NCBI GenBank assembly: GCA_029259185.1
Contig: JAPDJF010000001.1
Span: 9,156 to 73,155, forward strand
Direction of reading: 5' to 3'
From: Hadesarchaea archaeon
GTDB taxonomy: Archaea > Hadarchaeota > Hadarchaeia > Hadarchaeales > WYZ-LMO6
Length of the DNA: 64,000 nt
Part shown: piece by piece, positions 259 through 59,299 of the stretch
How positions within the stretch are numbered: position 1 is the stretch's first letter
Layout: every line of letters starts with the position of its first letter
Position numbers and translations under genes: made by a program
The notes under the pieces: model-generated
Seen by the model: the letters and a program-made list of their open reading frames with translations, nothing else
Databases searched by the model: none
What the model was told of the DNA's origin: nothing

Positions 259-597
259 TTAGCTCCTACCCCTTGATTTCCACTCCAGCACTTTTCTCTT
301 CCATCTCTCAAATTGTTGACATTTTACCTTGGTTTTGAGTTTCCCGCTCAAGTATTCCGTTAAAGCGATTACATCTTCCTTCCTTCTGACTTCCCACCTG
401 TGTAAAATACCACACTTTCTCACTTCCCCACATCCCATCAGATTATTGATCAAGTCTAACGGTTCTCTTTCCACACTCGTAACATAAAAGACGGGGTTTA
501 GATACACTCGCTCTTTCCCAGACCCACTCACGTATTTCACTTTATTCAACGTGAAACATCCTTTCGCTTCGATATATCCTAAAACCCATTCTTTCAT
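259..597 (-). CDS. Free-standing LAGLIDADG-type homing-endonuclease-like protein, 112 aa
   Basis: LGYIEAKGCF resembles the LAGLIDADG motif (LAGFIDGDGSF). A second conserved block follows, EREPLDLINNLMGCGEV ... LTEYLSGKLKTKVKCQQFERW, typical of LAGLIDADG domains. The gene sits immediately upstream of tyrS on the same strand. Confidence 0.5.
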   Translation of the reverse strand: MKEWVLGYIEAKGCFTLNKVKYVSGSGKERVYLNPVFYVTSVEREPLDLINNLMGCGEVRKCGILHRWEVRRKEDVIALTEYLSGKLKTKVKCQQFERWKRKVLEWKSRGRS

Positions 598-2950: not shown

Positions 2951-4183
2951 GTGGAATGGATGAGGTCGTGGTTCGAGTATGAGTGTATAGATTGCGGTAA
3001 GAGACAGCCTCCTGAGAAGAGATTTTATGTCTGTCCTGAGTGTGGAGGATTGTTGGAGATAGAGCTAGACCTCCAGTATATCTCAGAGCGTTTGGATCGG
3101 GAGGCGCTTGAGAGGAAACCCCTGAACGTGTGGAGGTATCGACAGTTTTTGCCGATCGTGGATGAGTCCAAGATAGTCACTCTCCAAGAAGGAGGGACAC
3201 CACTGTACAGGTGTAGACGATTAGAGGAGAAGCTCGGGATAGCAGAGTTCTACGTGAAGTACGAGGGAGCTAATCCTACCGGATCCTTCAAAGACAGGGG
3301 GATGACGGTAGGGGTCACAAAGGCCCTCGAGTTTGGGGTGAAGACAGTGGCTTGTGCATCCACCGGCAACACCTCAGCCTCACTCGCGGCTTATGCGGCC
3401 AAAGCTGGGCTGAAGTGTTTAGTGATCCTCCCTAGCGGAAAAGTAGCCCTGGGGAAACTGGCACAGGCGGCGATTCACGGGGCACGCATAGTAGCCGTTA
3501 AGGGAAACTTCGATCGGGCACTTTCACTCGTCCGGCAGATATGTGAGAAGCGTGGGGACATATATCTACTAAACTCCCTCAATCCCTTCAGGCCGCAGGG
3601 ACAGAAGACGATAGGGTTCGAAATAGCCGATCAACTCGGGTGGGGCGTTCCGGATCGATTAGTGGTCCCGATGGGGAACTGCGCTAACATATGGGCGATA
3701 TACAAGGGATTCTTTGAGTTAAAAGAGGTGGGCATGATAGAAAACATACCGAGGATGGTGGGGATCCAAGCTGAAGGGGCTAAACCCATAGTCGATGCGG
3801 TGAGGAAGGGGATTGATAAATTCATTCCAGTTGAGAACCCGGAGACGATAGCAACGGCTATCCGTATAGGCAATCCGGTGAACGGTTCGAAGGCGATCCG
3901 GGCCATAAAGCGCTCGGGCGGTACGGCTGAGAGCGTAACGGATGAGGAGATAATAGAAGCCCAGCGTGAACTAGCTAGGTCAGAGGGAATAGGTGTCGAA
4001 CCCGCCAGCGCGGCAGCGATAGCAGGGATTAAAAAGCTCATAGAGAGAGGGGAAGTGGACAGAGATGAGAAGGTAGTTTGTGTGGCCACGGGTAACGTGC
4101 TCAAGGATCCGGAAGAAGCAGTGCGGGTATCTGAGAGCCCCTTGGAAACGGAGCCGGAGGAGGTATTGAAGGTGGTAGGATGA
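2951..4183 (+). CDS. thrC: Threonine synthase, archaeal type with an N-terminal zinc ribbon
   Basis: N-terminal CxxC...CxxC ribbon (CIDCGK...CPECGG). PLP-lysine motif GSFKDRGMTV. Length 410 aa. Confidence 0.9.
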   Translation: MEWMRSWFEYECIDCGKRQPPEKRFYVCPECGGLLEIELDLQYISERLDREALERKPLNVWRYRQFLPIVDESKIVTLQEGGTPLYRCRRLEEKLGIAEFYVKYEGANPTGSFKDRGMTVGVTKALEFGVKTVACASTGNTSASLAAYAAKAGLKCLVILPSGKVALGKLAQAAIHGARIVAVKGNFDRALSLVRQICEKRGDIYLLNSLNPFRPQGQKTIGFEIADQLGWGVPDRLVVPMGNCANIWAIYKGFFELKEVGMIENIPRMVGIQAEGAKPIVDAVRKGIDKFIPVENPETIATAIRIGNPVNGSKAIRAIKRSGGTAESVTDEEIIEAQRELARSEGIGVEPASAAAIAGIKKLIERGEVDRDEKVVCVATGNVLKDPEEAVRVSESPLETEPEEVLKVVG

Positions 4184-5508
4184 GACTGATGCATCCGAGC
4201 GAAATCCTTAATCGAACATTTGAACTCCTCAGGAAACATCACGAGTGGATGAAGGGGACTGTAAATCTGATAGCTAGTGAGAATGTAACGAGCGTTGCCG
4301 TTAGGGAAGCGTTGATAAGTGATTTCCAGCATCGATACGCCGAGGGCTGGCCGGGGGAAAGAGTTTACGCGGGTTGTAAGTACATCGACCAGATAGAGCT
4401 CATGAGCATAGACTTAGCCAAGCAGCTCTTTAAGGCGGAGCATGCCAACGTTCAGCCGACCTCAGGAGTGGCGGCAAACTTGGCAATGTTCACCGCACTC
4501 ACTGAGCCAGGGGACACGATGATGTGTCTCTCCATCCCATCGGGGGGGCACATAAGCATGGGAAAGAAAAAGCTTGGAGGGACAGCAGGGGCAGTTCATG
4601 GCTTGCAGGTGGAGAACTGGCCCTTCGATGAAGGGCGCATGAACATCGATGTGGATGCAGCGATAAAGAAAGTGAGAGAGGTGAGACCGAAACTCTTACT
4701 CTTCGGTGGGAGCGTGTTCTTGTTCCCCCATCCTGTGAAAGAGTTCGCAGAAATCGCAAACGAGGTGGGAGCACACATCGCGTATGATGCCGCTCATGTG
4801 GCGGGCCTGATAGCTGGGGGACAGTTCCAAGATCCACTCAGGGAGGGGGCGGACGTGATGACTTGTAGTACCCATAAAACCCTGCCCGGACCCCAACACG
4901 GGATGATCCTTTGCAAGCAGGAGCTTGCAGAGAGGATAAACAAAGCGGTTTTCCCAGGTGTGGTGAGCAACCATCATCTCCACTGTGTTGCTGCGTTGAA
5001 CGTAGCGCTGGCGGAGATGTTAGAGTTTGGGAAGGAGTATGCCATCCAGATAATCAAGAATGCGAGAGCACTCGCTAAAGAGCTCTATGAAAGAGGATTC
5101 AGTGTGCTGTGTCCGGATCAAGGGTTCACTTCTTCTCACACGATTCTCATAGACGTGACGAAATACGGTGGGGGAGGGATCATTGAGAAGAGGCTAGAGG
5201 AGGCTAATATAATCATAAACCGCAACTTGCTCCCCTGGGATCTACGAGAGGGCAGACACTACGTGAATCCAGGTGGTATAAGACTGGGAGTCTCAGAGGT
5301 CACCAGGCTTGGTATGAGAGAAGGAGAAATGAAGGAAGTGGCAGACTTCATCACAAGAGTGGTAGTGGATGGGATCTCACCTACTCGAGTTGCGGTGGAA
5401 GTTCAGGAGTTCAAGAAGAGGTTCACCAAGCTTCACTATGCGTTCGACTCCATGGATGAGGCATACGAATACATAAGGATACGAGGGAATCCCCCCTCAT
5501 CCGGATAA
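4180..5508 (+). CDS. glyA: Serine hydroxymethyltransferase
   Basis: Motifs NLIASEN and THKTLPGPQHG (PLP-lysine region) are present. Length 442 aa. It overlaps the thrC stop by 4 nt. Confidence 0.9.
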   Translation: MRLMHPSEILNRTFELLRKHHEWMKGTVNLIASENVTSVAVREALISDFQHRYAEGWPGERVYAGCKYIDQIELMSIDLAKQLFKAEHANVQPTSGVAANLAMFTALTEPGDTMMCLSIPSGGHISMGKKKLGGTAGAVHGLQVENWPFDEGRMNIDVDAAIKKVREVRPKLLLFGGSVFLFPHPVKEFAEIANEVGAHIAYDAAHVAGLIAGGQFQDPLREGADVMTCSTHKTLPGPQHGMILCKQELAERINKAVFPGVVSNHHLHCVAALNVALAEMLEFGKEYAIQIIKNARALAKELYERGFSVLCPDQGFTSSHTILIDVTKYGGGGIIEKRLEEANIIINRNLLPWDLREGRHYVNPGGIRLGVSEVTRLGMREGEMKEVADFITRVVVDGISPTRVAVEVQEFKKRFTKLHYAFDSMDEAYEYIRIRGNPPSSG

Positions 5509-5805
5509 CTTTCAACGATCTCTCTGAGAGGTGCTTTTTTCTGGAGTGATGGCCGTGTAGGTTAGAGATGGCACGCTTGTCTCTTCTCGGGAGAAGAAAA
5601 ATAACACAACATATTCTTAGGGGAGTGCAAAAAATTTGCTTCTTTTTAAACCATGTGAACCAATGGACACCGATTTGGCTAAATAGCTCCCACTTCCTCC
5701 AAGGGAACCGGAGGTCAAGGGGGGTAATTTCTGGAGGAGATAGGTCTCTCCGTCGATGAGGAAATAAAGGAGAAGCTTACAGGATTTTTCCAGAGCAAGC
5801 GGATT

Positions 5806-8800
5806 TTGAAGGAGGTATATGCAGCTTCGTCAGCGGGGCGGGATTCGCTCGTGATAGATTTCGACAATTTGGTTGAGCACGACATTACACTAGCAAAATA
5901 CTTGTTGGAGAGCCCCCATCCCTTTTTCAAAATAGCCAACGGGCTGCTTGTTGAACTGACTGGAAACCCGAAAATACAACTCCGGGTTAGGGGGGCGGGG
6001 GGCCTCACCAGGATAAGGGAGCTCAGGGCCACCCATGTCGGAAAGTTTGTCCAAGTGGAGGGGATCCTCACCCGTGCGAGCGAGATAAAGCCGGAGATAA
6101 GGGAGGCCCTCTTCAGGTGTCTCCATTGCGGGGAGCTTAATCCGGTGCCCCAGAGCGACGAGGTGTTCAGAGAGCCGTTGAGTTGTCAGAATCCAAATTG
6201 TAGACGACGAGGCCCCTTCAAACTGGAAGTGGAGCAATCGGAGTTCAGGGACTGGCAGAGCCTCCGTGTTCAAGAGAGACATGAGGAGCTCAGGGGGGGA
6301 CGCATGCCGATGATGCTCGATTGCATAGTCAGGGACGACTTGGTGGATGTAGCAGTTCCTGGAAATCACGTGATCCTGAGTGGCGTGTTGGAGGTATTCC
6401 AGGAGAGTTTCAAGCAGAGACGAAAGACTTTCCGCAAGATCCTCTATGTTTCCTACCTAGAGGTAATTCAGAAGGGCGTCGAAGAAACGGAGCTGAGTGA
6501 GGAAGACGAGAAGCAGATAGAGGAGATGGTAAAGGACCCTTGGCTCTACAATAGGGTGATTCAGTCCATAGCTCCGAGCGTCCACGGGTATGAAGCCGTC
6601 AAGGAAGGAATAGCTCTCATGCTTTTCGGATGTGATCCTTTGGCCCTCCCAGATGGTACGCGCGTGAGGGGAGATACCCACATCCTGCTAACAGGTGATC
6701 CGGGGGTGGCGAAGAGCATGCTCCTGACATGGGTGGCGGGGGTAGCGCCACGCGGGCTCTACACGTCTGGGAAGAAGGCGACGGGGGCAGGGCTTACAGC
6801 CACAGCCGTTAGAGATGAACTCGGCGGGGGATGGACACTCGAAGCTGGAGCTCTCGTGATAGCCGATGGGGGGGTTGCTTGCTTGCATCCCTCAACTCAC
6901 ATAATTTACAATGGGAGGATCGTTCGGATAAGTGAACTCGCTGATGGAGTGAACTTCGAGAAAGCTTGGTCTGGGGGGGAAGAGGTTGAAGTTGGAGCCA
7001 TCGATGGCGAGGTTCCTTCCCTAAACTTGAGAACTTTAAAGGTTGAATACACGCCGGCCGTCCTGATCCGGCGGAAACGTTACTGTGGAGAGATGGTGAG
7101 AATGAGGTTCAGATCAGGGTTTGAGATAAGTGTCACTCCAGACCACCTCTTGTTGGACGGAGATACGTTCGGGTGGAAGGAGGCATCGGATTTTAGAGAG
7201 CTGGATCGAGTGGTAGCACCGTCTCACATTCCGAGCTACAGGGGAGAGGTTTTCCTGTGGGATATCCTACCCGAGGACTGCTTGGTCTACCTAACCCCAA
7301 AGGAGAAAAATGAATTGGAACGGCTGTTGAAGCAGAGATTCAGAACGTTGGCTACTGCCAGTAAAGTGCTTAGTATCCCGTGTTTGCCTGCATTTTTCCA
7401 TGGGGGGGTACATCCCCTCCTTGGGGAACTCAGAGCGATGGTAAGGGCGGTGGGCGTTGAGTGGGAGTGGAGAGTCAAGCCTCACCGGTACTTCGGGTCG
7501 GAAACAAAAATCGCAAGGTTGACATGGGAGCTAGGGTACCTTCTAGGATTCATCTTCGGAAGCGACACGGTGGAGAGTGAACCCGAGGCAGATGTCCCTC
7601 CGAGTCGATCGGTCAAGTCGCGAGCGTGCATTGAGAGATTCAGAGACTGCTGGAACAGGGTTTTCCCAGAGTTTTCGTACGGGGAATTGGGGAGACGATT
7701 CCATCCGAGGAGTGGGAATAACCGTGAGTTAAGGATGCTGGCTTGGCTCTACAATTTCTCCTTCGGAAACGATTTGAAGAATCTCCCATCTCTATCACCA
7801 GAATTCATAGCGGGAGTTTTTGCTGGCCTGACGGATTCACATGAAGGTAATCTAGGGTGTGGGGGGGAGGGGGAAAAACTCGTCCGTAACGTGTCCGAGG
7901 GGATCAACCGATTGGACTTGAATTTTTTGCTCGCCCTTCGGATGATCGACCGGTACGGAATCTGTGGGGGGTGTGTGAATAATGTTGTACCTTCTGGAAA
8001 GCGCGATTGTCAGGGGTTCGAACAGGTCGGCTGTTTGGTGGAGGTGTCCACCGAGGTCGGGAGGAGAGGTGGTTCAGAGTTCAGCGTACGAGAAAGAGAG
8101 CGCGGAACTTTCCCTACAGGGGAAGGAAAAGATTGGTTCAGTCCTCGAGATTCGATCCGCTTCGATTGTTTCTTAGATCAGTTAGTCAAAGTGGAACGGG
8201 AGAAGTATGAAGGGTACGTGTACGATATCTACGTGCCCCATTCACATAATTTCATCGCGGAGGGGGTGTTCGTCCACAATTGTATAGATGAGTTCGACAA
8301 GATGAGCGAAGAGGATAGGAGCGCAATACTCGAAGCACTTGAGCAACAAACGATAAGTGTGGCGAAAGCAGGGATAGTCGCAACGCTTAATGCACGCACC
8401 TCGGTGCTTGCAGCCTCCAACCCGAAGGCTGGAAGGCTCGATCGGAGCAGGAACTTAAACGAACAGATAGCACTGGACCCCGTGCTCCTTTCGAGGTTTG
8501 ATCTCATTTTCGTAATGAGGGATGAACCTAGAGGGGATGTGGATAAGAGGATCGCTAGACACATGTTGGAGCTCCATAGAAAGCCAGAGATCGCGAAGCC
8601 CCCGATCGATGCTGAAACCCTACGTAAACTCATAATTTACGCGAGGAAGTACATCCATCCAAAACTAACCAGCGAGCGCGTGATAAAGCGCATAGAAGAT
8701 TTCTACGTGAGGAACAGGAGTGTGGCCGAGAGGGGTGAAGCACCGATCCCCATAACCCCGAGGCAACTGGAGTCCCTGATAAGACTAGCCAAGGCGAGCG

Positions 8801-9689: not shown

Positions 9690-10881
9690 GAACAGGGAGT
9701 ACCTGCGACCAACCTACACTCCCGAGAGACTCCCGCATCGTGAGGAACAGATCCACCAACTAGCTAGGATCTTGGTCGCCCCGCTTCGGGGGGAAACCCC
9801 GTCCAACATCTTCATTTACGGGAAGACGGGGACGGGAAAGACGGCGACAGTTAAGTACGTGATAAAGGAGCTGGAGAAGGTGGGAAAAGAGCTCCAGCGG
9901 AGGGTAGAGGGGATTTATGTAAATTGTGAGATGGTCAACACACGCTACAGGGTACTAGCAACCTTGGTGAATTGCTTGGTGGGAGGCGATAGGGGGGCTC
10001 GAGGCGTTCCAATGACTGGGTGGCCAACCGATGCGGTCTATGATTGCTTCCTCCGATCCCTTGACTCAACGGAGCGCGTGGTGGTGATAGTTATGGACGA
10101 AGTGGACAGGCTCGTTGCCAAGAACGGAGACGATGTGCTTTACGACTTGACCAGAATAAACTCAGAGCTTAGGAGCACTAAGGTGAGCGTCATCGGGATC
10201 TCAAACGATGCTAGGTTCACGACTTACCTTGATCCGCGGGTGAAAAGCAGTCTCGGAGAGGAGGAGATAGTTTTTCCTCCTTATAACGCGATCCAACTCA
10301 AAGACATTTTAGAGCAGAGGGCGTCGGAGGCTTTCAACCCAAGGGTCTTGGGGGAGGGCGTGATTCAGCTTTGTGCCGCCCATGCAGCGAGGGAGCATGG
10401 GGATGCGAGAAGGGCTCTTGATCTGTTGAGAGTAGCCGGAGAACTTGCGGAGAGGGATAATACTGGAATGGTGACGGTGGAGCATGTGAGGAGGGCATAC
10501 GAGAAAGTAGAGCAGGACAAAATGATGGAGCTCATAAGAACTCTCCCGAGCCAGTCGAAACTCGTGCTCTACAGCGTACTCTTGTTGACCGAAAAGGGGA
10601 GGAACAGGATAACGACGGGAGAGGTTTACGAAGCGTACAGGAGGATATGCAGGTCCGGTGGGGTGGACGTCTTGACCCCCCGCAGGGTGAGTGACCTCAT
10701 CTCAGAGTTAGACATGCTCGGAGTGATAAGCACCCAACTTATCAGCAGCGGGCGTTACGGTAGGACGAAAGAGATAGTCCTCAACATTTCTCCGGTTCAG
10801 CTTAGAGCGGCCTTGCAAGAAGATGACTCAATAAGCACTATCGACGTGCTCACGCTCCCACGTCAGCTGACGCTCATGTAG
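9661..10881 (+). CDS. cdc6: Cdc6/Orc1 replication initiator
   Basis: N-terminal motif YTPERLPHREEQI. Walker A IFIYGKTGTGKT. Walker B/sensor VVIVMDEVD. C-terminal winged-helix region. The start is chosen at the internal Met (MWLERKP) because the longer ORF overlaps the upstream gene. Confidence 0.9.
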   Translation: MWLERKPIFKNREYLRPTYTPERLPHREEQIHQLARILVAPLRGETPSNIFIYGKTGTGKTATVKYVIKELEKVGKELQRRVEGIYVNCEMVNTRYRVLATLVNCLVGGDRGARGVPMTGWPTDAVYDCFLRSLDSTERVVVIVMDEVDRLVAKNGDDVLYDLTRINSELRSTKVSVIGISNDARFTTYLDPRVKSSLGEEEIVFPPYNAIQLKDILEQRASEAFNPRVLGEGVIQLCAAHAAREHGDARRALDLLRVAGELAERDNTGMVTVEHVRRAYEKVEQDKMMELIRTLPSQSKLVLYSVLLLTEKGRNRITTGEVYEAYRRICRSGGVDVLTPRRVSDLISELDMLGVISTQLISSGRYGRTKEIVLNISPVQLRAALQEDDSISTIDVLTLPRQLTLM

Positions 10882-12423
10882 GTGGAGAAGGTGGATGGAG
10901 AGTTACTGGTTCGGAAATTCCGAGATGCAGACCTTTGCCTCACCCCGGAGGCTCTGGAGTTCCTCCTCAGAATGGAGGGCAAAGAGGTAGAGGAGCTCCT
11001 GGAGAAGCTGAAGAAGGTTCGTGATGGTCCTTTCGTTACTCCGGAGGTGTTGAGAAAAGCCCTAGGTCTTGAAGAGAAACCCTCCAAAGCGGAGGGAGAA
11101 GAGGGTGGAGCCACGGGTGGTCGCGCTCCGGAGAGAGGGTTAAAAGAGCTCTCTCATGGATCAAAACCCCTCGCGGCCGAGATAGATGCTAGGGTGGAGG
11201 TAATAAAGGACATAACCGGGAAGAGTTACAGCCGTGGGGAGATCAGGGATTTCTTGAGTCTATTCCGTGACCGTTACGAGCGTCTCAGCGCGCTTCTAAG
11301 GAGGCGAACAGATTTTCAGAATCCGGTTTATATTGAGGAGCTTGGGAGGATGGAAGGCGAGACGGTTACCGTTATAGGGATGGTAATGAGCAAGCGTGAA
11401 ACCTCCAGCGGACACCTACTGATCGAAATAGAGGACCTAACGGGGAGGGCGGCGGTTTGGGTTTTCAAGGGGCAGAGAGAGCTAATGCAGAAGGCCGGTG
11501 AGGTGGTACCGGATGAAGTCATAGGAGTAGAAGGAAACGTTCGTCCAGGCGATAAGATCCCCCGCATCCTAGCCAGAGACATAGTTTGGCCCGACCTGCC
11601 GACTCCGAGAGAACCAACGCGCGCTGACGAGCCTGTTTGTGCTGTGTTGATCTCCGATCTGCATGTGGGGAGCAAAATGTTTCTCGAAGACGTTTTCATG
11701 AGGTTCATTAAGTGGCTGAGGGGGGAGCTGGGAAATGCGGATCACCGCGAGCTCGCGGGTAGAACGAAGTATGTGGTTATAGCTGGGGATGTGGTGGACG
11801 GAATAGGTATCTATCCAAAACAGGAGGAAGAACTCTTGATCCATGATATCTTCAGACAGTACGAGGAGGCCGCGAGATTGCTGGAGCAGATCCCTGATCA
11901 TATAACAATAATAATCTCCCCTGGAAATCACGATGGGGTAAGACCCTCTGAACCTCAACCGGCTATTTCGAGGGAGGTGGGTGGACGATTGTATGAGCTG
12001 AATTCGGTCATGGTCGGAAACCCAGCTTGGGTTTCCCTCCACGGAGTTAAATTTCTGATCTACCACGGCAGGAGTTTTGATGACCTAGCGGCCACGGTGC
12101 CCGGGAGCAGCAGGAGCGATATTTCATCGATGATGATTAAACTATTACAAAAGAGACACATGGCCCCGGTCTACGGTGGGAGGGTAGCGGTGGTTCCGGA
12201 AGAAAAAGATTTCTTGGTGATAGAGGAAGTTCCAGATGTTTTTCACTGTGGTCACGCCCATGTTTACGGGCTCAAAAGCTATCGATCTGTCTGGGCGGTC
12301 AACTCGGGGACATTTCAGACGATGACTACTTACATGTGGGAGAGGGGGATAACTCCGACCCCCGGGATAATCACGGTGATGGATTTACAAAAAAATCAAC
12401 CGAAGGTGATAAGACTTGCGTGA
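10882..12423 (+). CDS. DNA polymerase II (PolD) small subunit DP1
   Basis: Calcineurin-like phosphoesterase motifs are present: ISDLHVG, AGDVVDG, GNHD, YHGRSFDD and CGHAHV. The N-terminal region is PCNA and DP2-interacting type. Length 513 aa. Confidence 0.9.
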   Translation: MEKVDGELLVRKFRDADLCLTPEALEFLLRMEGKEVEELLEKLKKVRDGPFVTPEVLRKALGLEEKPSKAEGEEGGATGGRAPERGLKELSHGSKPLAAEIDARVEVIKDITGKSYSRGEIRDFLSLFRDRYERLSALLRRRTDFQNPVYIEELGRMEGETVTVIGMVMSKRETSSGHLLIEIEDLTGRAAVWVFKGQRELMQKAGEVVPDEVIGVEGNVRPGDKIPRILARDIVWPDLPTPREPTRADEPVCAVLISDLHVGSKMFLEDVFMRFIKWLRGELGNADHRELAGRTKYVVIAGDVVDGIGIYPKQEEELLIHDIFRQYEEAARLLEQIPDHITIIISPGNHDGVRPSEPQPAISREVGGRLYELNSVMVGNPAWVSLHGVKFLIYHGRSFDDLAATVPGSSRSDISSMMIKLLQKRHMAPVYGGRVAVVPEEKDFLVIEEVPDVFHCGHAHVYGLKSYRSVWAVNSGTFQTMTTYMWERGITPTPGIITVMDLQKNQPKVIRLA

Positions 12424-28725: not shown

Positions 28726-29277
28726 ATGGGGGGGCGGAAAGGGATCAAGAGAGTTTTCATCCCACTTGTGAAGAACGATTTTATCTATGAGGTACTTTCC
28801 TTCTTTCTTTGCATCGGTATCTTGTACTTTTCCCATCAGGGAATCCTGATGTTGGCCCTGGACTGCGATACCCCCCTCATGCCTGTCATCTCGAATAGCA
28901 TGCAACACCACAGCGAGAGCTGGAAAGTACCATACGAGCAGATGGGTTATGACCCCTCCCAGTTTCCGTTTCAGGGGGGATTCGAGAGGGGCGATCTTCT
29001 TGTGATAAAGGGTGTAGATTCACCTAGTGAGATATCGGTCGGAGATGTGGTGGTATACCAGCGAGTGCCGGGTACGATACCGGTGGTGCATAGGGTGCTA
29101 TCGAAGTCAGAAGACGGACAGATCATCGTCCTGAAAGGGGATGCGAATTCGAGTCCGGATCCGAGCATATCTTTCGAGATGGTTAGGGGAAAGGTGATAT
29201 TGGCAATCCCTAACCTCGGTTGGTTCTCTATATCAGTTTGGAAGTACAGATGGCTTTGCACAAAAATTAGCCCCTGA
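28726..29277 (+). CDS. Signal peptidase I, archaeal Sec11-type
   Basis: N-terminal TM segment. Catalytic Ser box VISNSMQH. The GDLLVIKG and KGDANSSPD boxes are present. Confidence 0.7.
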   Translation: MGGRKGIKRVFIPLVKNDFIYEVLSFFLCIGILYFSHQGILMLALDCDTPLMPVISNSMQHHSESWKVPYEQMGYDPSQFPFQGGFERGDLLVIKGVDSPSEISVGDVVVYQRVPGTIPVVHRVLSKSEDGQIIVLKGDANSSPDPSISFEMVRGKVILAIPNLGWFSISVWKYRWLCTKISP

Positions 29278-30406
29278 GGCCAATTTCCGTGCTTGGGGGC
29301 TCGGAGTCCCCCTCAAGGGCCGAAAGCCCTACGGCCCCGTCCCTGAGCCAGTGGCCCAGGAACCTCTCTCCAATGTTTATGGCTCCGTTGAGGTCGGCGT
29401 TGTACTCGAGGCCACACGAGGGACATTTGAAGAAGCCTTGAGAGACCCTTCGTCCTTCGTTTCCGCAGCGGTGGCACGTTCGGCTGGTGTACGCCTCGCC
29501 GGCGTGCACCACGGGGATCCCCTCCCAGAGAGCCTTGTACTCGATGTACCTTGACAGCCGGTGGTGGGGCATCGAGTGCACGATGCGCCTGAACCTCCGC
29601 CCCTTTGCCCGCTTGCGGATTCCCTTCAGATCTCCTATCACGATAACCGAGTTCCGCTCCTTAGCTTCGCTGACGATAGCCCTTGAGATCTTGTGGCACA
29701 GGTCGTCTATTCGCCGGCGCTCCGTTCTGCCTATCCGCTTGATCACCCGCAGTAGCTTGCGCTCGCCGAGTCGCTTTCGGAGCCAAGCGTAGTGGCGCCT
29801 TATCCCCCTTGCTTCCTTCCCGTAGAGCTTGGGGGAGGTGATGTTGGCCTCCTTCTGCAGCGCCACAGACGCCGCGAGAAAGCGCTCCCCCAAGTCCACT
29901 GCGAGGACGCCGGAGGGACGCATCGGCTTGACCCTACGCTTGACCGTGAGGTGGAGGAAGAACCTCCCGTTGCGGTGGACGAGCTGTGAGTCGGAGATCT
30001 CAACCCTACCCGAGGAGAGAAGCTCCTCGTGGGAGCGCCACATCCGCAGCGGGCACCAGATGCGCCCGCCGGGGGTTGAAACGGATACGAAAAACCTGGC
30101 GAACCTGTTTCCGGTGTCGGTGAGCTTGAATGAGTCCTTATCGATGAGGATGGGAGCCTTCCGCCTGTCCCCGGCCTTCCAAGCTAAAGCACGGCAGTAG
30201 TAGGAGGGCAACCTCGTTTGCTCTCTCAGAGTCCGGTAGTCCCTCTCAAGGGCCTGGGCGCGATCCCACTCGGCTTGGAGGTCCTCCAGAAGCTTGCGCT
30301 TGAACCGGGTGAGGCCGTAGAGTTCAGCCCTTATCGTCTTGGAGACCAACATCGAACGTGGTCTGTCGGAACCATTTTAAGTTTTCCGGTATTTTTGTGC
30401 AAAGCG
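29252..30406 (-). mobile_element. TnpB-only transposon, 1155 bp, with 15-bp perfect TIRs (GCTTTGCACAAAAAT) and a 9-bp TSD (AGTACAGAT)
   Basis: AGTACAGAT occurs at 29243-29251 and at 30407-30415, directly abutting the inverted termini GGCTTTGCACAAAAAT ... ATTTTTGTGCAAAGCG. The element encodes a single full-length TnpB. Confidence 0.75.
29267..30352 (-). CDS. tnpB: TnpB (OrfB) RuvC-like RNA-guided endonuclease family protein, apparently intact
   Basis: Length 361 aa. RuvC-I VLAVDLGE. Zinc finger CHRCGNEG...CPSCG. RuvC-III YNADLNGAINIG. Confidence 0.85.
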   Translation of the reverse strand: MLVSKTIRAELYGLTRFKRKLLEDLQAEWDRAQALERDYRTLREQTRLPSYYCRALAWKAGDRRKAPILIDKDSFKLTDTGNRFARFFVSVSTPGGRIWCPLRMWRSHEELLSSGRVEISDSQLVHRNGRFFLHLTVKRRVKPMRPSGVLAVDLGERFLAASVALQKEANITSPKLYGKEARGIRRHYAWLRKRLGERKLLRVIKRIGRTERRRIDDLCHKISRAIVSEAKERNSVIVIGDLKGIRKRAKGRRFRRIVHSMPHHRLSRYIEYKALWEGIPVVHAGEAYTSRTCHRCGNEGRRVSQGFFKCPSCGLEYNADLNGAINIGERFLGHWLRDGAVGLSALEGDSEPPSTEIGLRG

Positions 30407-30464
30407 AGTACAGATGAAAGATTTATTGGTACCCAAGTGAGTAGATTTAGCTTGGAGGCAGGCG

Positions 30465-30785
30465 ATGAGGTTCTGCAAGAAATGTGGTGGTCTGATGGTT
30501 CCCAAGAAGAGTGGGGGAAAGAACGTATTGCTTTGTGAGATGTGTGGAGAGACGGAGGAGGCCGATAGCTCCGGCTACACGTTGGTTCGAAAAGTTGAGG
30601 AAAAAGCGGAAGTGGTGGTGATTGAGAATGAGCCTTCTACCTTGCCGACCACACGCGCCAAGTGTACTAAATGTGGGAATGACAAAGCGTATTGGTGGAT
30701 GAGACAGACGAGGAGTGCGGACGAGCCCTCTACTCGATTCTACAGGTGTACCAAGTGCGGGAATACATGGAGGGAATACGCATAG
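30465..30785 (+). CDS. tfs: Transcription factor S (TFS) / RNAP subunit M
   Basis: N-terminal ribbon MRFCKKCGGLMVP...CEMCG. C-terminal TFIIS-type ribbon CTKCGNDKAYWWMRQTRSADEPSTRFYRCTKCGNTW. Confidence 0.8.
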   Translation: MRFCKKCGGLMVPKKSGGKNVLLCEMCGETEEADSSGYTLVRKVEEKAEVVVIENEPSTLPTTRAKCTKCGNDKAYWWMRQTRSADEPSTRFYRCTKCGNTWREYA

Positions 30786-31160
30786 GTGGTTCAGGTGGAT
30801 GAGTTTCAGCCCCGAAGGAAAGTGGCCAAACCGAGACGAATTTCGGAAATAAGGGTGGGGGAGGAGTTCGTGAGGGTCACCGGGTGTGTCGCCTACAAGA
30901 AGAACAGCGAGATAGTCCTAGATGACGGATCCGGGATGCTCACGGTTTTTTCAGACGATTCTGGGATGTTCCGCGATGTCGATATAGGCTCGAAGATAAG
31001 GGTTTTCGGCACGCCGTTAATAACGGAGGGTGGGCAAGAGCTTAAGGCGGAGATAGTTCAAAAGGTGGACGGGCTGGATCTCCAGCTCCTCGAAAAAGTT
31101 ATGGAGGAAGTAAAAAAATTCGAGTCAGAAGTGAAGGGGGAAGAGAGTGTTCAGAGCTAG
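30786..31160 (+). CDS. OB-fold nucleic-acid-binding protein, possibly a small RPA-like ssDNA-binding subunit
   Basis: Length 124 aa. VRVTGCVAYKKNSEIVLDDGSGMLTVF...IRVFG resembles the PF01336-type OB barrel. It lies between tfs and pcna. Confidence 0.35.
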   Translation: MVQVDEFQPRRKVAKPRRISEIRVGEEFVRVTGCVAYKKNSEIVLDDGSGMLTVFSDDSGMFRDVDIGSKIRVFGTPLITEGGQELKAEIVQKVDGLDLQLLEKVMEEVKKFESEVKGEESVQS

Positions 31161-31902
31161 AATGTCGGATACGAGGGTTTGGAAAACTTGCGTCGGAGCG
31201 ATAGTGAATCTGATCGAGGAAGCGGCTTTTAAATTCACGGGGGAAGGGGTCAGGATGAGAGCTATGGACCCCTCCCATGTCGCTTTGGTGGATTTCGACC
31301 TTCCCGCAAAGGCATTCGATGAGTACGAGGTTTCAAAGCCTGTGGTTCTGGGTATCGTGCTGGTCGAACTTAACAAGATAATGTCTAGGGCGAAGAGTGA
31401 GGATTCCCTGATATTGGAATTTGAGGAGGAGAAAAACCGTCTATCACTCGTCTTCAAAGGTAGATCCAGCAGGAGATTCAATCTTCCTCTCGTCGACATA
31501 AAAGAGAGCGAGCTTCCCGAGCCCAAACTCCAGTTCGGTGCCACCGTCCGGGTTCTAGGCGAGATAATTCAGGATGGACTCCGCGATGCCGAGGTGGTTG
31601 GGGATACCGTACGCTTCGAGGCTAACGAATCTGGATTCTTCATGTACTCGGAGGGGGACGGAAGATCGGTTGAACTCAAACTCGAAAAGGGTAGTGAAGC
31701 ACTGGCGAAGTTGGAGGTGCGACAACCATCGAGAGCGATGTTCAACGTGAAGTATCTTTCTGACATGCTTAAAGCCGCAGACATGAAGGATTTCATAACG
31801 ATAAATCTGGGAACGGATCTCCCAATAAAACTCGATTTCCCAATAGCGGGTGGGGAAGGGAGGCTCAGCTTCATCCTAGCTCCACGGATCGAGTCAGAGT
31901 GA
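31147..31902 (+). CDS. pcn: PCNA sliding clamp. The start may be the Met at 31162
   Basis: IEEAAFKFTGEGVRMRAMDPSHVALVDFDLP...LAPRIE aligns closely with the Pyrococcus PCNA pattern. Confidence 0.85.
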   Translation: MFRARMSDTRVWKTCVGAIVNLIEEAAFKFTGEGVRMRAMDPSHVALVDFDLPAKAFDEYEVSKPVVLGIVLVELNKIMSRAKSEDSLILEFEEEKNRLSLVFKGRSSRRFNLPLVDIKESELPEPKLQFGATVRVLGEIIQDGLRDAEVVGDTVRFEANESGFFMYSEGDGRSVELKLEKGSEALAKLEVRQPSRAMFNVKYLSDMLKAADMKDFITINLGTDLPIKLDFPIAGGEGRLSFILAPRIESE

Positions 31903-33167
31903 CCCGAGAGCCATATATGTTTCCCCTTCCAGAGTATCCAGCTGTTTTAGATCTCTTTTCCCAAGAAGCAAAGGAGATCGTCCGAACCTCTCCACCGCTC
32001 GGCTCCTTGCCCCAAGAGGTAAGCGAGAGAGCCGTGAAGAGGGTGATGTGGAAAACGGGTGGGGAGATGATGGTGGGGTTCAAATCCTCCGAAGTCAGAA
32101 TGGATGTGCTCTCTTTCTATCTGATGTGTCAAGGAGTAGCGGCAGTCTCGTATCCCTATTCTAGAGAGGTCAGGCTGGTGAGTGAAAAGACTGCGGAGAC
32201 GATCCGATATAGGATGTATTATCTGTTTTCCCACGGTTATGGGGAGCAGTGCTTGGGGGTTGTTCGGAGGTACTTCAGGATTTCAAGACTTGAAAATCGC
32301 AGGGTTGCGGGTGAGGAAATCCCAAAGGAGGATCTCTTCAAACTGAGAAACGCGTGTTTGGCTCGTGCAGGTATCCAAGTTCCATCGGATCGGATCCCCC
32401 CCCAGTACGTGCCCGAGTACACCTTACCTTGGGTCGACCTCGCCCCCTTGCTGAGGCAGGGGCGGATACAGCTTACAGATCTTTATGTGGTGAGAGGGAG
32501 CGTTGTAATAACTCCCTACGAGCTTTGGGACATGTTCGCGTGGATGATGAGTATGAAGTGCGAAGAGTACATAGCTGCTCTCTATGAACGCTTCACGGAG
32601 ACGGGTCCTCCTCCCGAAGTGATCGGTAAAGTAGGTGAGCGCATATCCTCCCTCTTCCCCCCCGAACTTGAGGTAGTGGAGAGAGGGGGCAGGTTTCCGA
32701 GGGGGAAGCTCCGTCCGGAGTTCTTCCCCCCATGTGTCAAACGTGCACTTGCTGGGGTGGGTTCTGGGGCTAGGAATTACGCGATAACGGTTCTTTTGAC
32801 TTCTTTTCTTTCCTACGCCCGTATTTCTCCCTCCGGAAAAGCTGCGATGAGGATAAAGGACTTTGTGGATAACCTCTCCGTGTTACAGGAGGAGGTCATC
32901 CCTCTCATATTCGAAGCCGCTGAGCGATGCAATCCCCCCCTTTTCAGGGATCAGCCCCAAGAACGCGCCAATGTGTATTACCATCTCGGGTTTGGAATGA
33001 CCACCGAACCAAGACTTGAGGATTCGGGGAGGAGTCGCTGGTATAAAACCCCCAATTGCCGGAAAATAGCTTCTTCTGCACCACTCCTCTGCACCCCTGA
33101 TGAGACATGTAAGGAAGTGAAGAACCCTCTCACCTATTACTATAAGCGTTTAGCGAGAAAGAGTTGA
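31899..33167 (+). CDS. priL: DNA primase large subunit PriL
   Basis: Length 422 aa. C-terminal Fe-S domain cysteines: FPPCVKR, ERCNPP, TPNCRK and CTPDETC. Confidence 0.75.
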   Translation: MTREPYMFPLPEYPAVLDLFSQEAKEIVRTSPPLGSLPQEVSERAVKRVMWKTGGEMMVGFKSSEVRMDVLSFYLMCQGVAAVSYPYSREVRLVSEKTAETIRYRMYYLFSHGYGEQCLGVVRRYFRISRLENRRVAGEEIPKEDLFKLRNACLARAGIQVPSDRIPPQYVPEYTLPWVDLAPLLRQGRIQLTDLYVVRGSVVITPYELWDMFAWMMSMKCEEYIAALYERFTETGPPPEVIGKVGERISSLFPPELEVVERGGRFPRGKLRPEFFPPCVKRALAGVGSGARNYAITVLLTSFLSYARISPSGKAAMRIKDFVDNLSVLQEEVIPLIFEAAERCNPPLFRDQPQERANVYYHLGFGMTTEPRLEDSGRSRWYKTPNCRKIASSAPLLCTPDETCKEVKNPLTYYYKRLARKS

Positions 33168-40183: not shown

Positions 40184-40232
40184 AGCTTCACATAGTCTTC
40201 CACTCGTTCAAAATAAGTCTTTCAGAGACCTC

Positions 40233-40823
40233 TGCTTTGCACAAAAATACCGGAAAACTTAAAATGGTTCCGACAGACCACGTTCGATGTTGGCCTCCAA
40301 GACGATAAGAGCTGAACTCTACGGCCTCACCCGGTTCAAGCGCAAGCTTCTGGAGGACCTCCAAGCCGAGTGGGATCGCGCCCAAGCCCCTTGAGAGGCC
40401 GGACTCTGAGAGAGCAAACGAGGCTGCCCTCCTACTACTGCCGTGCTTTAGCCTGGAAGGCTGGCGATGGGCGGAAGGCTCCCATCCTCATCGATAAGGA
40501 CTCATTCAAGCTCACCGACACCGGAAACAGTTCGCCAGGTTTTTCGTATCCGTTTCAACCCCCGGCGGGTGTACGCCGGCGAGGCATACACCAGCAAATG
40601 TGCCACTGGAAACGAAGGACGAAGGGTCTCTCAAGGCTTCTTCAAATGCTCGTCGTGTGGGCTGGAGTACAACGCCGACCTCAACGGAGCCATAAATATT
40701 GGAGAGGGGTTCCTGGGCCACTGGCTCAGGGACGAAGGCGTGGGGCTTTCGGCCCTTAGGGGATCCCGAGCCCCCAAGCACGGAAATTGGCCTCAGGGGC
40801 TAATTTTTTTTGTGCAGAGCCAG
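40233..40823 (+). mobile_element. MITE-like internally deleted derivative of the TnpB transposon, about 590 bp, with both TIRs and a 9-10-bp TSD (AGAGACCTC(T))
   Basis: Left end tGCTTTGCACAAAAATACCGGAAAACTTAAAATGG... Right end ...GGCCTCAGGGGCTAATTTTTTTTGTGCAGAGCC. The flanking direct repeat AGAGACCTCT lies at 40224-40233 and 40824-40833. Only the 5-prime and 3-prime parts of tnpB remain. Confidence 0.7.
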
Positions 40824-40835
40824 AGACCTCTCAGG

Positions 40836-58330: not shown

Positions 58331-58741
58331 TCATCCTTTGGATAGTTCCTTCTCTATGGCCTTTATGAATTCCTTAGCAGAATCCATTGCTCCTTTAGCA
58401 TCGCTTCGTTTGACAGATAATGTGGGGTCACTATAGATGGCTGAGACGAATCGATTGAACTGATCTAAAGAGGTCACGTGCTCTCTCAGCTCAGGGTATC
58501 GACACCGAAGATACTCGATCATCGTTTGTCTTTCAACCTCGCTCACCCCATTTCTGAAGAGGAGAGCCCTAGCGGCATGAAACATGGAGATGAGCGAGGC
58601 CACCACGGCCATGTCCCGGTATCCTAGAGCATTGCTATCTTTCGCCCGCTTTAACCATTCTTTTGCAACTTTCAGGGATCTCATACTCATGTTCAACGGC
58701 AAAACCAATTTGAATTGCGTCTCAAAATTTAAAAATTTCAA
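58331..58741 (-). CDS. HEPN-domain protein, the toxin-type partner of MNT
   Basis: LKVAKEWLKRAKDSNALGYRDMAVVASLISMFHAARALLFRNG is the HEPN helical pattern. It is convergent with the MNT gene. Confidence 0.55.
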   Translation of the reverse strand: MKFLNFETQFKLVLPLNMSMRSLKVAKEWLKRAKDSNALGYRDMAVVASLISMFHAARALLFRNGVSEVERQTMIEYLRCRYPELREHVTSLDQFNRFVSAIYSDPTLSVKRSDAKGAMDSAKEFIKAIEKELSKG

Positions 58742-58748
58742 ACTTTGG

Positions 58749-59185
58749 CGCTTTGCACAAAAATACCGGAAAACTTAAAATGGTTCCGACAGACCACGTT
58801 CGATGTTGGCCTCCAAGACGATAAGAGCTGAACTCTACGGCCTCACCCGGTTCAAGCGCAAGCTTCTGGAGGACCTCCAAGCCGAGTGGGATCGCGCCCA
58901 GGCCCTTGAGAGGGACTACCGGACTCTGAGAGAGCAAACGAGGCATCCACCAGCCGAACGTGCCACCGCTGCGGAAACGAAGGACGAAGGGTCTCTCAAG
59001 GCTTCTTCAAATGCTCGTCGTGTGGGCTGGAGTACAACGCCGACCTCAACGGAGCCATAAATATTGGAGAGGGGTTCTTGGGCCACTGGCTCAGGGACGG
59101 GGGCGTGGGGCTTTCGCCCCTTTAGGGGATCCCGAGCCTCCAAGCACAAAAATTGGCCTCAGGGCTGATTTTTTTGTGCAGAGCC
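58749..59185 (+). mobile_element. Second MITE-like deletion derivative of the TnpB transposon, 437 bp, with TIRs and a 9-bp TSD (AAACTTTGG)
   Basis: AAACTTTGG lies at 58740-58748 and 59186-59194. Ends are cGCTTTGCACAAAAATACCGG... and ...TTTTTTTGTGCAGAGCC. The interior retains only the tnpB 5-prime fragment (MLASKTIRAELYGLT...) and the 3-prime fragment (…CSSCGLEYNADLNGAINIGEG…). Confidence 0.7.
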
Positions 59186-59299
59186 AAACTTTGGTTCCGT
59201 AAAAGTTTTTGAGGTAATCTCATTAATCTCGCTGGTCAAGGCAGGTGGGTGCGACAAAATCCCATGAGGTGATGTGAATGAGCCCCAGAACAAACCCAA

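Follow-up and report, generated by a model that had tools for sequence, protein, structure and literature searches.

TnpB-only elements with terminal inverted repeats, 9-bp target-site duplications and deletion derivatives keeping a putative guide-RNA module in a Hadesarchaea contig: a case for mobilisation in trans

The present analysis deals with a TnpB-only transposable element contained in a 64,000-nt stretch (hereafter the window) of the Hadesarchaea archaeon contig JAPDJF010000001.1. The whole element (copy 1) is 1155 bp long, is localized at 29252-30406 on the minus strand and has a single long open reading frame (ORF), tnpB (29267-30352, minus strand, 361 aa). In the tnpB orientation, its left end (LE) is position 30406 and its right end (RE) is position 29252. 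These limits were deduced from terminal inverted repeats (TIR), from a target-site duplication (TSD) and from the loss of similarity with two further copies of the window (copies 2 and 3). The TIR is a perfect repeat of 15 bp, GCTTTGCACAAAAAT, at 29253-29267 and 30391-30405. The TSD is an exact direct repeat of 9 bp, AGTACAGAT, at 29243-29251 and 30407-30415, with no other exact occurrence in the 64 kb. A first-pass annotation of the window had described a 1155-bp element carrying tnpB alone between these repeats, and all its statements on the sequence hold.

With the outermost bases included, the TIR of RE (29252-29267) reads ATTTTTGTGCAAAGCC on the minus strand and overlaps the stop codon of tnpB; that of LE (30391-30406) reads CGCTTTGCACAAAAAT on the same strand. 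The TIR of this family begins GGCTTTGCACA... and stops 1 nt short of each terminus, the outermost bases (29252 G and 30406 G) being non-complementary. In the tnpB orientation the element is written 5'-(C/T)GCTTTGCAC...GTGCA(A/G)AGCC-3', and the LE-side TSD (30407-30415, AGTACAGAT on the plus strand) reads ATCTGTACT. Since RE too finishes in C, the direct repeat can also be read as 10 bp, with 29252 and 30416 counted in; the flanking motif described below is then TTT only. The TIR pattern has 7 matches in the window at ≤3 mismatches for 1.5 expected, and none of 100 shuffles gave 7. The matches outside copy 1 fall in copies 2 and 3.

Copy 2 (589 bp, 40233-40821) and copy 3 (437 bp, 58749-59185), both on the plus strand, are internally deleted. 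They retain, respectively, the first 342 and 195 nt and the last ~255 and ~247 nt of the element, copy 2 keeping LE, the leader and both end segments. When aligned with copy 1, their 5' and 3' segments show 88-99% identity, and the ORF is disrupted in each copy. [quoted passage not shown] The TSD is AGAGACCTC for copy 2 (40224-40232 and 40822-40830) and AAACTTTGG for copy 3 (58740-58748 and 59186-59194), each perfect, 9 bp long and of its own sequence; a random 9/9 match is expected at ~4e-6 per site. Three perfect and differing TSDs upon three copies are therefore not due to chance, and it follows that full-length and MITE-like copies were inserted via 9-bp staggered target cuts. The possibility that the 9-mer is a part of the element was rejected: it differs in each copy and matches the right flank of that copy. 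The alignment of the three copies, proposed as a check in the first-pass annotation, thus supports it, with shared ends and a perfect 9-bp TSD for copies 2 and 3. That annotation was silent on their nature of MITE-like deletion derivatives and on the flanking motif TTTC.

It must be noted that the outermost LE base varies (C, T and C at 30406, 40233 and 58749, respectively; G or T in Micrarchaeota), and that the outermost RE base is constant (C in the window copies, A in Micrarchaeota). The termini are thus not strictly symmetric; the RE base may be fixed by an RNA constraint or may reflect a quirk of strand cleavage. Upstream of copy 1, an ORF of 183 aa (28726-29277, plus strand) extends 26 nt into the element, the insertion having substituted its last ~8 codons and its stop codon.

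TnpB matches NCBIfam guided_TnpB (8e-50), Pfam Cas12f1-like_TNB (3e-23) and also OrfB_IS605; the nearest solved structures are those of Cas12f/TnpB (E=2e-17). The RuvC D-E-D triad (D153/E286/D320) and the C4 zinc finger are intact, in agreement with what was first noted, and the triad and the four Cys (CxxC...CxxC) are invariant in an alignment of 24 sequences (23 homologues and the window TnpB). Exact-protein look-ups with the window TnpB and with one MITE ORF gave no match. The LE leader (30353-30390, minus strand) has an identical sequence in the three copies and contains a TTAAAA, TATA-like box ~25 nt 5' of the ATG. Owing to this box, the leader is probably the promoter and 5' untranslated region of tnpB. 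The 54 nt given previously between the left end and the ATG are correct; the accompanying suggestion that this leader could be a site of the guide RNA is unlikely, given the TTAAAA box and the covarying RNA structure present at the 3' end of tnpB instead.

The element 3' end had been proposed as the other candidate site for the guide RNA, and covarying helices are indeed found there, abutting the right end. The candidate scaffold of the omega RNA (29258-29363, minus strand) ends in AAAGCC at RE; its predicted end is ...GUGCAAAGCC. It is composed of three covarying helices (~29295-29363) and of a 16-bp terminal hairpin, GCACGGAAAUUGGCCU/GGGGCUAAUUUUUGUGC (29258-29292), located 6 nt from the right end. 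When the last 289 nt are considered as RNA, their fold is better than that of shuffles (z=-2.8). Covariation was analyzed on the last 170 nt of 17 elements belonging to four TIR types (families A-D). In the three helices 94% of cells are paired, vs. 82% for column shuffles and 39-60% for slid partners; compensatory changes occur in nine helix pairs, and none of 500 shuffles had as many. By eye, one stem exists as GGGCCG/CGGCCC, GGGGCG/CGCCCC, GGGCAC/GTGCCC, GGGCGC/GCGCCC and GGGCTC/GAGCCC, and a second one as GGGGG/CCCCC, GGAGG/CCTCC and GGCGG/CCGCC. Also by eye, the terminal hairpin is followed by A(A/G)A(G/A)CC or AATACC and then by the flank in the four TIR types, the sequences of which are unrelated; right ends of Micrarchaeota elements have a similar hairpin followed by AAAGCA. 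No Rfam family matching the element 3' region was found.

This 3' structure fits the layout expected for an omega RNA using the flank as guide. As AAAGCC closes the candidate scaffold where the transposon stops, the flank, starting with the TSD, would be the guide. The predicted guide is AUCUGUACUUCCAAACUGAU (29232-29251, minus strand), the first 9 nt of which (29243-29251) are the RE-side TSD; we infer, by analogy with TnpB systems, that this flank would act as guide. The remaining 3' segment kept in both MITE copies (29364-29510, minus strand) may correspond to the 5' portion of the omega RNA. Both MITE copies retain element positions 897/909-1155 and preserve the whole candidate omega-RNA module.

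Homologues of the window TnpB are numerous (712 at E<1e-10) and come nearly all from archaeal metagenome-assembled genomes (MAG) or metagenomes. The genomic loci of 80 homologues and a few contigs of the closest ones, i.e., ~90 in all, were examined. Several lineages have again TnpB-only elements with TIRs, whose size of 1.13-1.19 kb leaves no room for a second gene. Among named genomes, it is a Hadesarchaea MAG that has the closest TnpB. In such a MAG, locus L002 (TnpB 62% identical) has a 14-bp TIR, GGTTCTCTTCGGAA, and a perfect 9-bp TSD, TAACTAGCC. Family B (L086 and L088; 73% identity by tblastn, 74-75% for proteins P0002/P0001) has the TIR GGTTCYGGTAARTATTCGTG; its TSD is ambiguous, and its flanks being too ambiguous it was excluded from the TSD and motif counts. 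Four Micrarchaeota loci (L014, L022, L027, L028) and an unclassified archaeal MAG (L059), with TnpBs 33-41% identical, have the TIR GCTTTGCACA(T/A)..., i.e., the same termini GCTTTGCACA as the window element. Their TSD matches at 9/9 positions for L014 and at 8/9 for L022, L028 and L059; none was found for L027. Family D (Thermoplasmata/Methanobacteriota MAGs, ~51%) has the TIR GTATTTGTTTAGCA and 8/8 TSDs for four insertions: L003 (CTCAAGGG, on a single contig) and three insertions split by the assembly and re-paired by their flanks, namely L010/L021 (CGACGTAG), L061/L051 (CCATTACC) and L054/L029 (CAGATCAC). Loci L005 and L006 (47-49%) have a TIR of 20-24 bp and no recognisable TSD.

The TIR type does not track the TnpB phylogeny: TnpBs 75% identical have unrelated TIRs and TnpBs 40% identical share theirs. 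This suggests that the ends are matched to the transposase resident in the host. The clade mixes canonical IS605-type and TIR/TSD members. Indeed, the 480-aa homologue P0098 consists of a Y1 (HUH) TnpA joined to a TnpB 47% identical to that of the window, so that canonical IS605-type relatives exist within the clade; moreover, a significant TIR is absent in ~30 of the 43 full-length relatives. Look-ups of P0105 and P0034 gave one locus each, present in many samples, and not multicopy insertions.

Two side observations were made on these loci. In L028, a solo left-end remnant (GCTTTGCACATAAATTCACC, 3630-3654) lies 2.3 kb upstream of the complete element and is followed by ordinary host genes. 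In L006, a perfect 29-bp inverted repeat, TGTGTGCGCGCACCAGCAAACCCACACAC, surrounds an ORF of 338 aa (10571-11911), with no TSD found; this ORF looks like a non-transposon gene with a secreted product.

TIRs combined with a TSD of fixed length are the signature of DDE-type transposases. IS200/IS605 and IS607 transposition yields neither TIRs nor TSDs (the IS607 TnpA is a serine recombinase); the presence of both thus excludes these two mechanisms. The incompatibility with IS200/IS605 transposition put forward in the first-pass annotation is borne out by the TIRs and TSDs of the three copies and of the relatives. From its ends, the element was most likely moved by a staggered-cut, DDE-type transposase acting in trans, which is still the best explanation of the TIR/TSD signature, as that annotation proposed. 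Its statement that the window contains no such transposase agrees with two results: no transposase or tnpA is present in the window among the matches listed (25 of 95 matching Pfam families), and tblastn with the IS903 transposase on the window and the related loci revealed no partner transposase. When viral contigs were scanned with the protein profile and with two TIR patterns, one distant homologue was recovered besides chance matches, and no transposase enclosed by paired TIRs was seen. A staggered break made by TnpB as the source of the TSD was considered and rejected, TnpB cutting far from its target-adjacent motif (TAM).

A candidate source for this transposase can be proposed. RE read inward begins GGCTTTGCAC... 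vs. GGCTTTGTTG in IS903, with GGCTTTG in common; the IS903 inverted repeat, GGCTTTGTTGAATAAATC, was confirmed in a plasmid record annotated IS903. IS903 makes a 9-bp TSD, and the element has the termini starting with GGC and the 9-bp TSD of the IS903 group. These features are suggestive of the IS5 family, IS903 group, as the source. The enzyme of family D presumably differs from that of the window family, because of its 8-bp TSD and its other TIR.

In the tnpB orientation, TTTC is found directly 5' of the LE-side TSD in the three window copies. This candidate TAM is localized at 30416-30419 for copy 1 (minus strand; GAAA on the plus strand), at 40220-40223 for copy 2 (left flank 40220-40232, plus strand) and at 58736-58739 for copy 3 (left flank 58736-58748, plus strand). 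In family D, TTTC is present at 4 of 6 sites (L003, L004, L010 and L061), the two others being TTAC (L054) and ATTG (L046); the layout is there TTT followed by the 8-bp TSD, the first base of which is C. The mirrored GAAA is found on the RE side in none of the three window copies and in none of 11 right flanks of family D. The left flanks of L014, L022, L027, L028 and L059 are T-rich (TTTT three times, TATT and TTAG).

Taken together, these data lead to a model held with moderate confidence: a non-autonomous, cut-and-paste-type TIR/TSD insertion sequence of an uncultured archaeon that carries an obligate mobile element-guided activity (OMEGA) module, i.e., TnpB and its omega RNA, that would be mobilised in trans by a DDE-type transposase and that would have TTTC as TAM. 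The transposase, encoded elsewhere and likely of DDE type (IS5 family, IS903 group), would recognise the ~15-bp TIRs, would insert the element with a 9-bp stagger and would move both MITE-like derivatives as well. The expression of tnpB would be driven from the left-end leader. The 3' end of the transcript would fold into the three covarying helices and the terminal hairpin, the 3' arm of the latter lying within the right TIR, and the flank, TSD first, would be the guide. An empty allele (TTTC + TSD + right flank) would then offer a TAM and a full match to the guide, and an occupied allele would offer only 9 matching bases followed by the left TIR. TnpB could cut empty alleles, e.g., sister or other chromosome copies, and homologous repair from the filled copy would restore or spread the element. 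In IS605 (Meers et al.), TnpA targets the motif that TnpB uses as TAM, and sister copies lacking the element are cut, leading to retention/homing; the model would adapt this logic to a transposon that makes TSDs. The TAM of Fanzor sometimes equals the insertion site.

Several points weigh against this model. (i) No recurrent transposase was found among 296 ORFs within 3 kb of the 80 homologues, the recurrent neighbours being housekeeping genes, and a generic scan of all related loci (~0.9 Mb) for TIRs plus TSDs revealed no partner transposase; as no candidate was found, it is the TIR/TSD signature that carries the case for DDE mobilisation in trans. (ii) The link with IS903 consists of a 7-nt terminal match and of the TSD length. 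(iii) The sample of informative left flanks is small, i.e., nine (3 + 6); L002 has CCTT in place of TTTC, and the T-rich flanks of Micrarchaeota sit in AT-rich genomes. (iv) According to a review, what remains after cut-and-paste excision is a break or a footprint and no clean joint of TAM and guide, so that TnpB would be of use at naive alleles only. (v) IS903 prefers WTTYA beside its TSD, and TTTC(A) could thus be a transposase preference.

This last point underlies the most serious alternative, namely that TTTC(A) is a mere target preference, together with an orientation preference, of an IS903-like transposase acting in trans, unrelated to the TAM of TnpB. TTTCA in the three window copies fits the WTTYA half-site of the IS903 target motif (WTTYA-N9-TRAAW), and the common GGCTTTG termini and TSD length of 9 bp are also in its favour. 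However, target motifs of DDE transposases are typically palindromic and the motif is here strictly one-sided. Moreover, TTTC also abuts the TSD in family D, with another TIR, an 8-bp TSD and presumably another transposase; as it accompanies TIRs that differ and TSDs of 9 as well as 8 bp, it appears as a property of TnpB rather than of the transposase. Finally, it is located exactly where a guide beginning at the right end requires a TAM. This alternative is therefore judged unlikely, though it keeps some weight. For these three reasons, TTTC as the TAM, or as a co-adaptation of the TAM and of the transposase preference, is the reading favoured from the flanks, with a confidence that is evenly balanced.

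A second alternative is that the element is autonomous, TnpB itself (a RuvC nuclease of RNase-H fold, with or without RNA) recognising the TIRs, excising the element and inserting it with a stagger. It could account for TnpB-only TIR/TSD elements in several archaeal phyla, for the lack of a visible transposase gene in the ~90 neighbourhoods and for the long stretches of both ends, beyond the TIRs, retained by the MITE copies. We know of no TnpB or Cas12 that joins DNA. In addition, TnpB/Cas12 cuts 15-22 nt from the TAM and not at the TAM, and the discordance between TIRs and TnpB identity fits ends matched to a resident transposase and not to TnpB. An absence within 10-kb neighbourhoods is uninformative on the rest of the genome. 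This explanation is thus very improbable.

It is hardly credible that the element is an ordinary IS1341-type member of IS200/IS605 moved by a Y1 TnpA, with similar subterminal hairpins taken for a TIR and direct repeats due to chance. The existence of P0098, the strong subterminal hairpin of the right end and the many relatives without a significant TIR could be invoked. The three independent perfect 9-bp TSDs, with more in relatives, effectively refute it, as Y1 transposition makes none; besides, the left end has no hairpin and the repeat comes within 1 nt of both termini. The first-pass annotation had named an HUH tnpA with matching LE and RE hairpins as what would overturn its proposal: the hairpin is found at RE only, and no tnpA is present in the window among the matches listed. 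Lastly, an immobile domesticated TnpB, e.g., a TldR-like RNA-guided regulator lying between repeats, would be in line with the frequent immobility of TnpB clusters in the literature and with homologues located between replication genes (see below), and is scarcely plausible in view of the intact catalytic triad and of the presence, at unrelated sites, of three copies that each have a TSD of their own, non-coding derivatives having been mobilised too.

As regards the model of mobilisation in trans, a more general proposal is made tentatively, with less than even confidence: abutting the TAM on the TSD would be a design that lets OMEGA nucleases work in TSD-making transposons of several archaeal phyla, TnpB cutting naive alleles only and driving elements and MITEs through polyploid genomes. 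If it is true, the one-sided TTTC would be the mark of a selection by the nuclease on insertions otherwise undirected, made by resident transposases that are unrelated to one another. TnpB, from which Cas12 descends, is usually explained through its partnership with the scarless IS605/IS607 transposases. A widespread archaeal set of TIR/TSD TnpB elements would make testable how homing guided by RNA can be squared with a duplication of the target, and whether the nuclease shapes which insertions survive. Compact archaeal TnpBs of 361 aa, for which TTTC is the predicted TAM and the scaffold end is defined, would also be candidates for genome-editing tests.

Archaeal housekeeping genes are present in the window, among them PolD DP2, MCM, ligase, PCNA, PriS/PriL, TFS and Nre. 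No more than ~800 bp separate copy 1 from PCNA-PriL (29267-33167). In three Micrarchaeota loci (L012, at 4870-7835, L017 and L066), a tnpB homologue is found between the gene of the primase large subunit (PriL) and that of PCNA; this shared location could be a coincidence, a preferred neighbourhood or an old fixed insertion. At the start of the window, an ORF of 112 aa (259-597, minus strand) has a match (E=7e-7) to LAGLIDADG_1, a family of homing endonucleases, and may belong to another selfish element, e.g., intron- or intein-associated. The insertion of copy 1 is also present on an ENA metagenome contig (L001, reached via PCNA) and on a JGI contig (L084); a scan of metagenome DNA with the 20-nt left end gave only this same site (L084) and chance hits. 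When L001 (8120-9260) is compared with the window (29252-30406), the flanks are ~99.6% identical and the element interior 95.7%, and the 3' part of the L001 element is closer to the MITE copies than copy 1 is. This pattern could stem from a chimera of metagenome assembly or from conversion between the copies, the latter being in line with homology-directed repair.

The comparison with known systems leads to the following picture. Transposases of the IS630, ISL2 and IS1031 types make TSDs of 2-3 bp. They are the DDE partners of TnpB mentioned in a 2026 review, which considers such associations as rare in prokaryotes because DDE excision leaves OMEGA little to do. IS1341-like elements of M. jannaschii may have inverted ends. 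In the baseline literature, TnpB-only elements (IS1341/IS605B) are without TIRs and without TSDs. Altae-Tran et al. 2023 (PNAS, PMC10691335) describe six DDE-associated TnpB branches (DDE-1 to DDE-6), all with inverted terminal repeats and with tnpB within 250 bp of one transposon end, and solo TnpBs presumed to be moved in trans, as their ends are nearly identical to those of the branches. A TnpB inside a TIR transposon, called unusual in the first-pass annotation, is thus rare and is not unprecedented. Literature searches gave nothing on TnpB elements of IS903 type or with a 9-bp TSD, nor on a prokaryotic rule placing the TAM next to the TSD; a string search for the TIR returned primers only. 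The archaeal set of TnpB-only elements having TSDs of 8-9 bp and termini like those of IS903, the MITEs that keep the candidate guide module and the one-sided TTTC appear to be new, the general idea being already known.

The DDE branches are alike by a prokaryotic TnpB enclosed in inverted ends and by a tnpB 3' end near the transposon end. They differ in that no cis DDE gene was seen in 80 relatives of the window TnpB and in that the window element has a 9-bp TSD and IS903-like termini; neither TSDs nor a rule on flanks or TAM are described for them in the main text consulted. With the IS1341 group of IS200/IS605, the window element shares a single tnpB gene, a size of ~1.15 kb, an omega-RNA-like 3' overlap and a T-rich motif of the left flank. 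On the contrary, it has TIRs, 9-bp TSDs and a hairpin at the right end only, and its TTTC is parted from the left end by the TSD, whereas the IS1341 group has subterminal hairpins at both ends and inserts just 3' of a target of 4-5 nt. A different chemistry of transposition must therefore be at work.

IS903 has the same GGCTTTG termini, the same 9-bp TSD and a flanking WTTYA resembling TTTCA. However, the inverted repeats diverge past 7 nt, the window flank motif occurs on one side only and is shifted by one base, and no IS903-type transposase gene was found in the element, the window or the related loci. Eukaryotic Fanzor transposons also have a TnpB-family cargo and TIR/TSD, and the Fanzor guide RNA overlaps the right TIR and extends into the flank; in contrast, the window element is prokaryotic, far smaller, without cis transposase and with a canonical, not rearranged, RuvC. 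Finally, copies 2 and 3 are similar to prokaryotic MITEs, being short, non-coding, bounded by TIRs and TSDs and derived from a longer element by internal deletion, and differ from them by keeping, beyond the transposase-binding ends, the whole putative module of the guide RNA and the region of the tnpB promoter.

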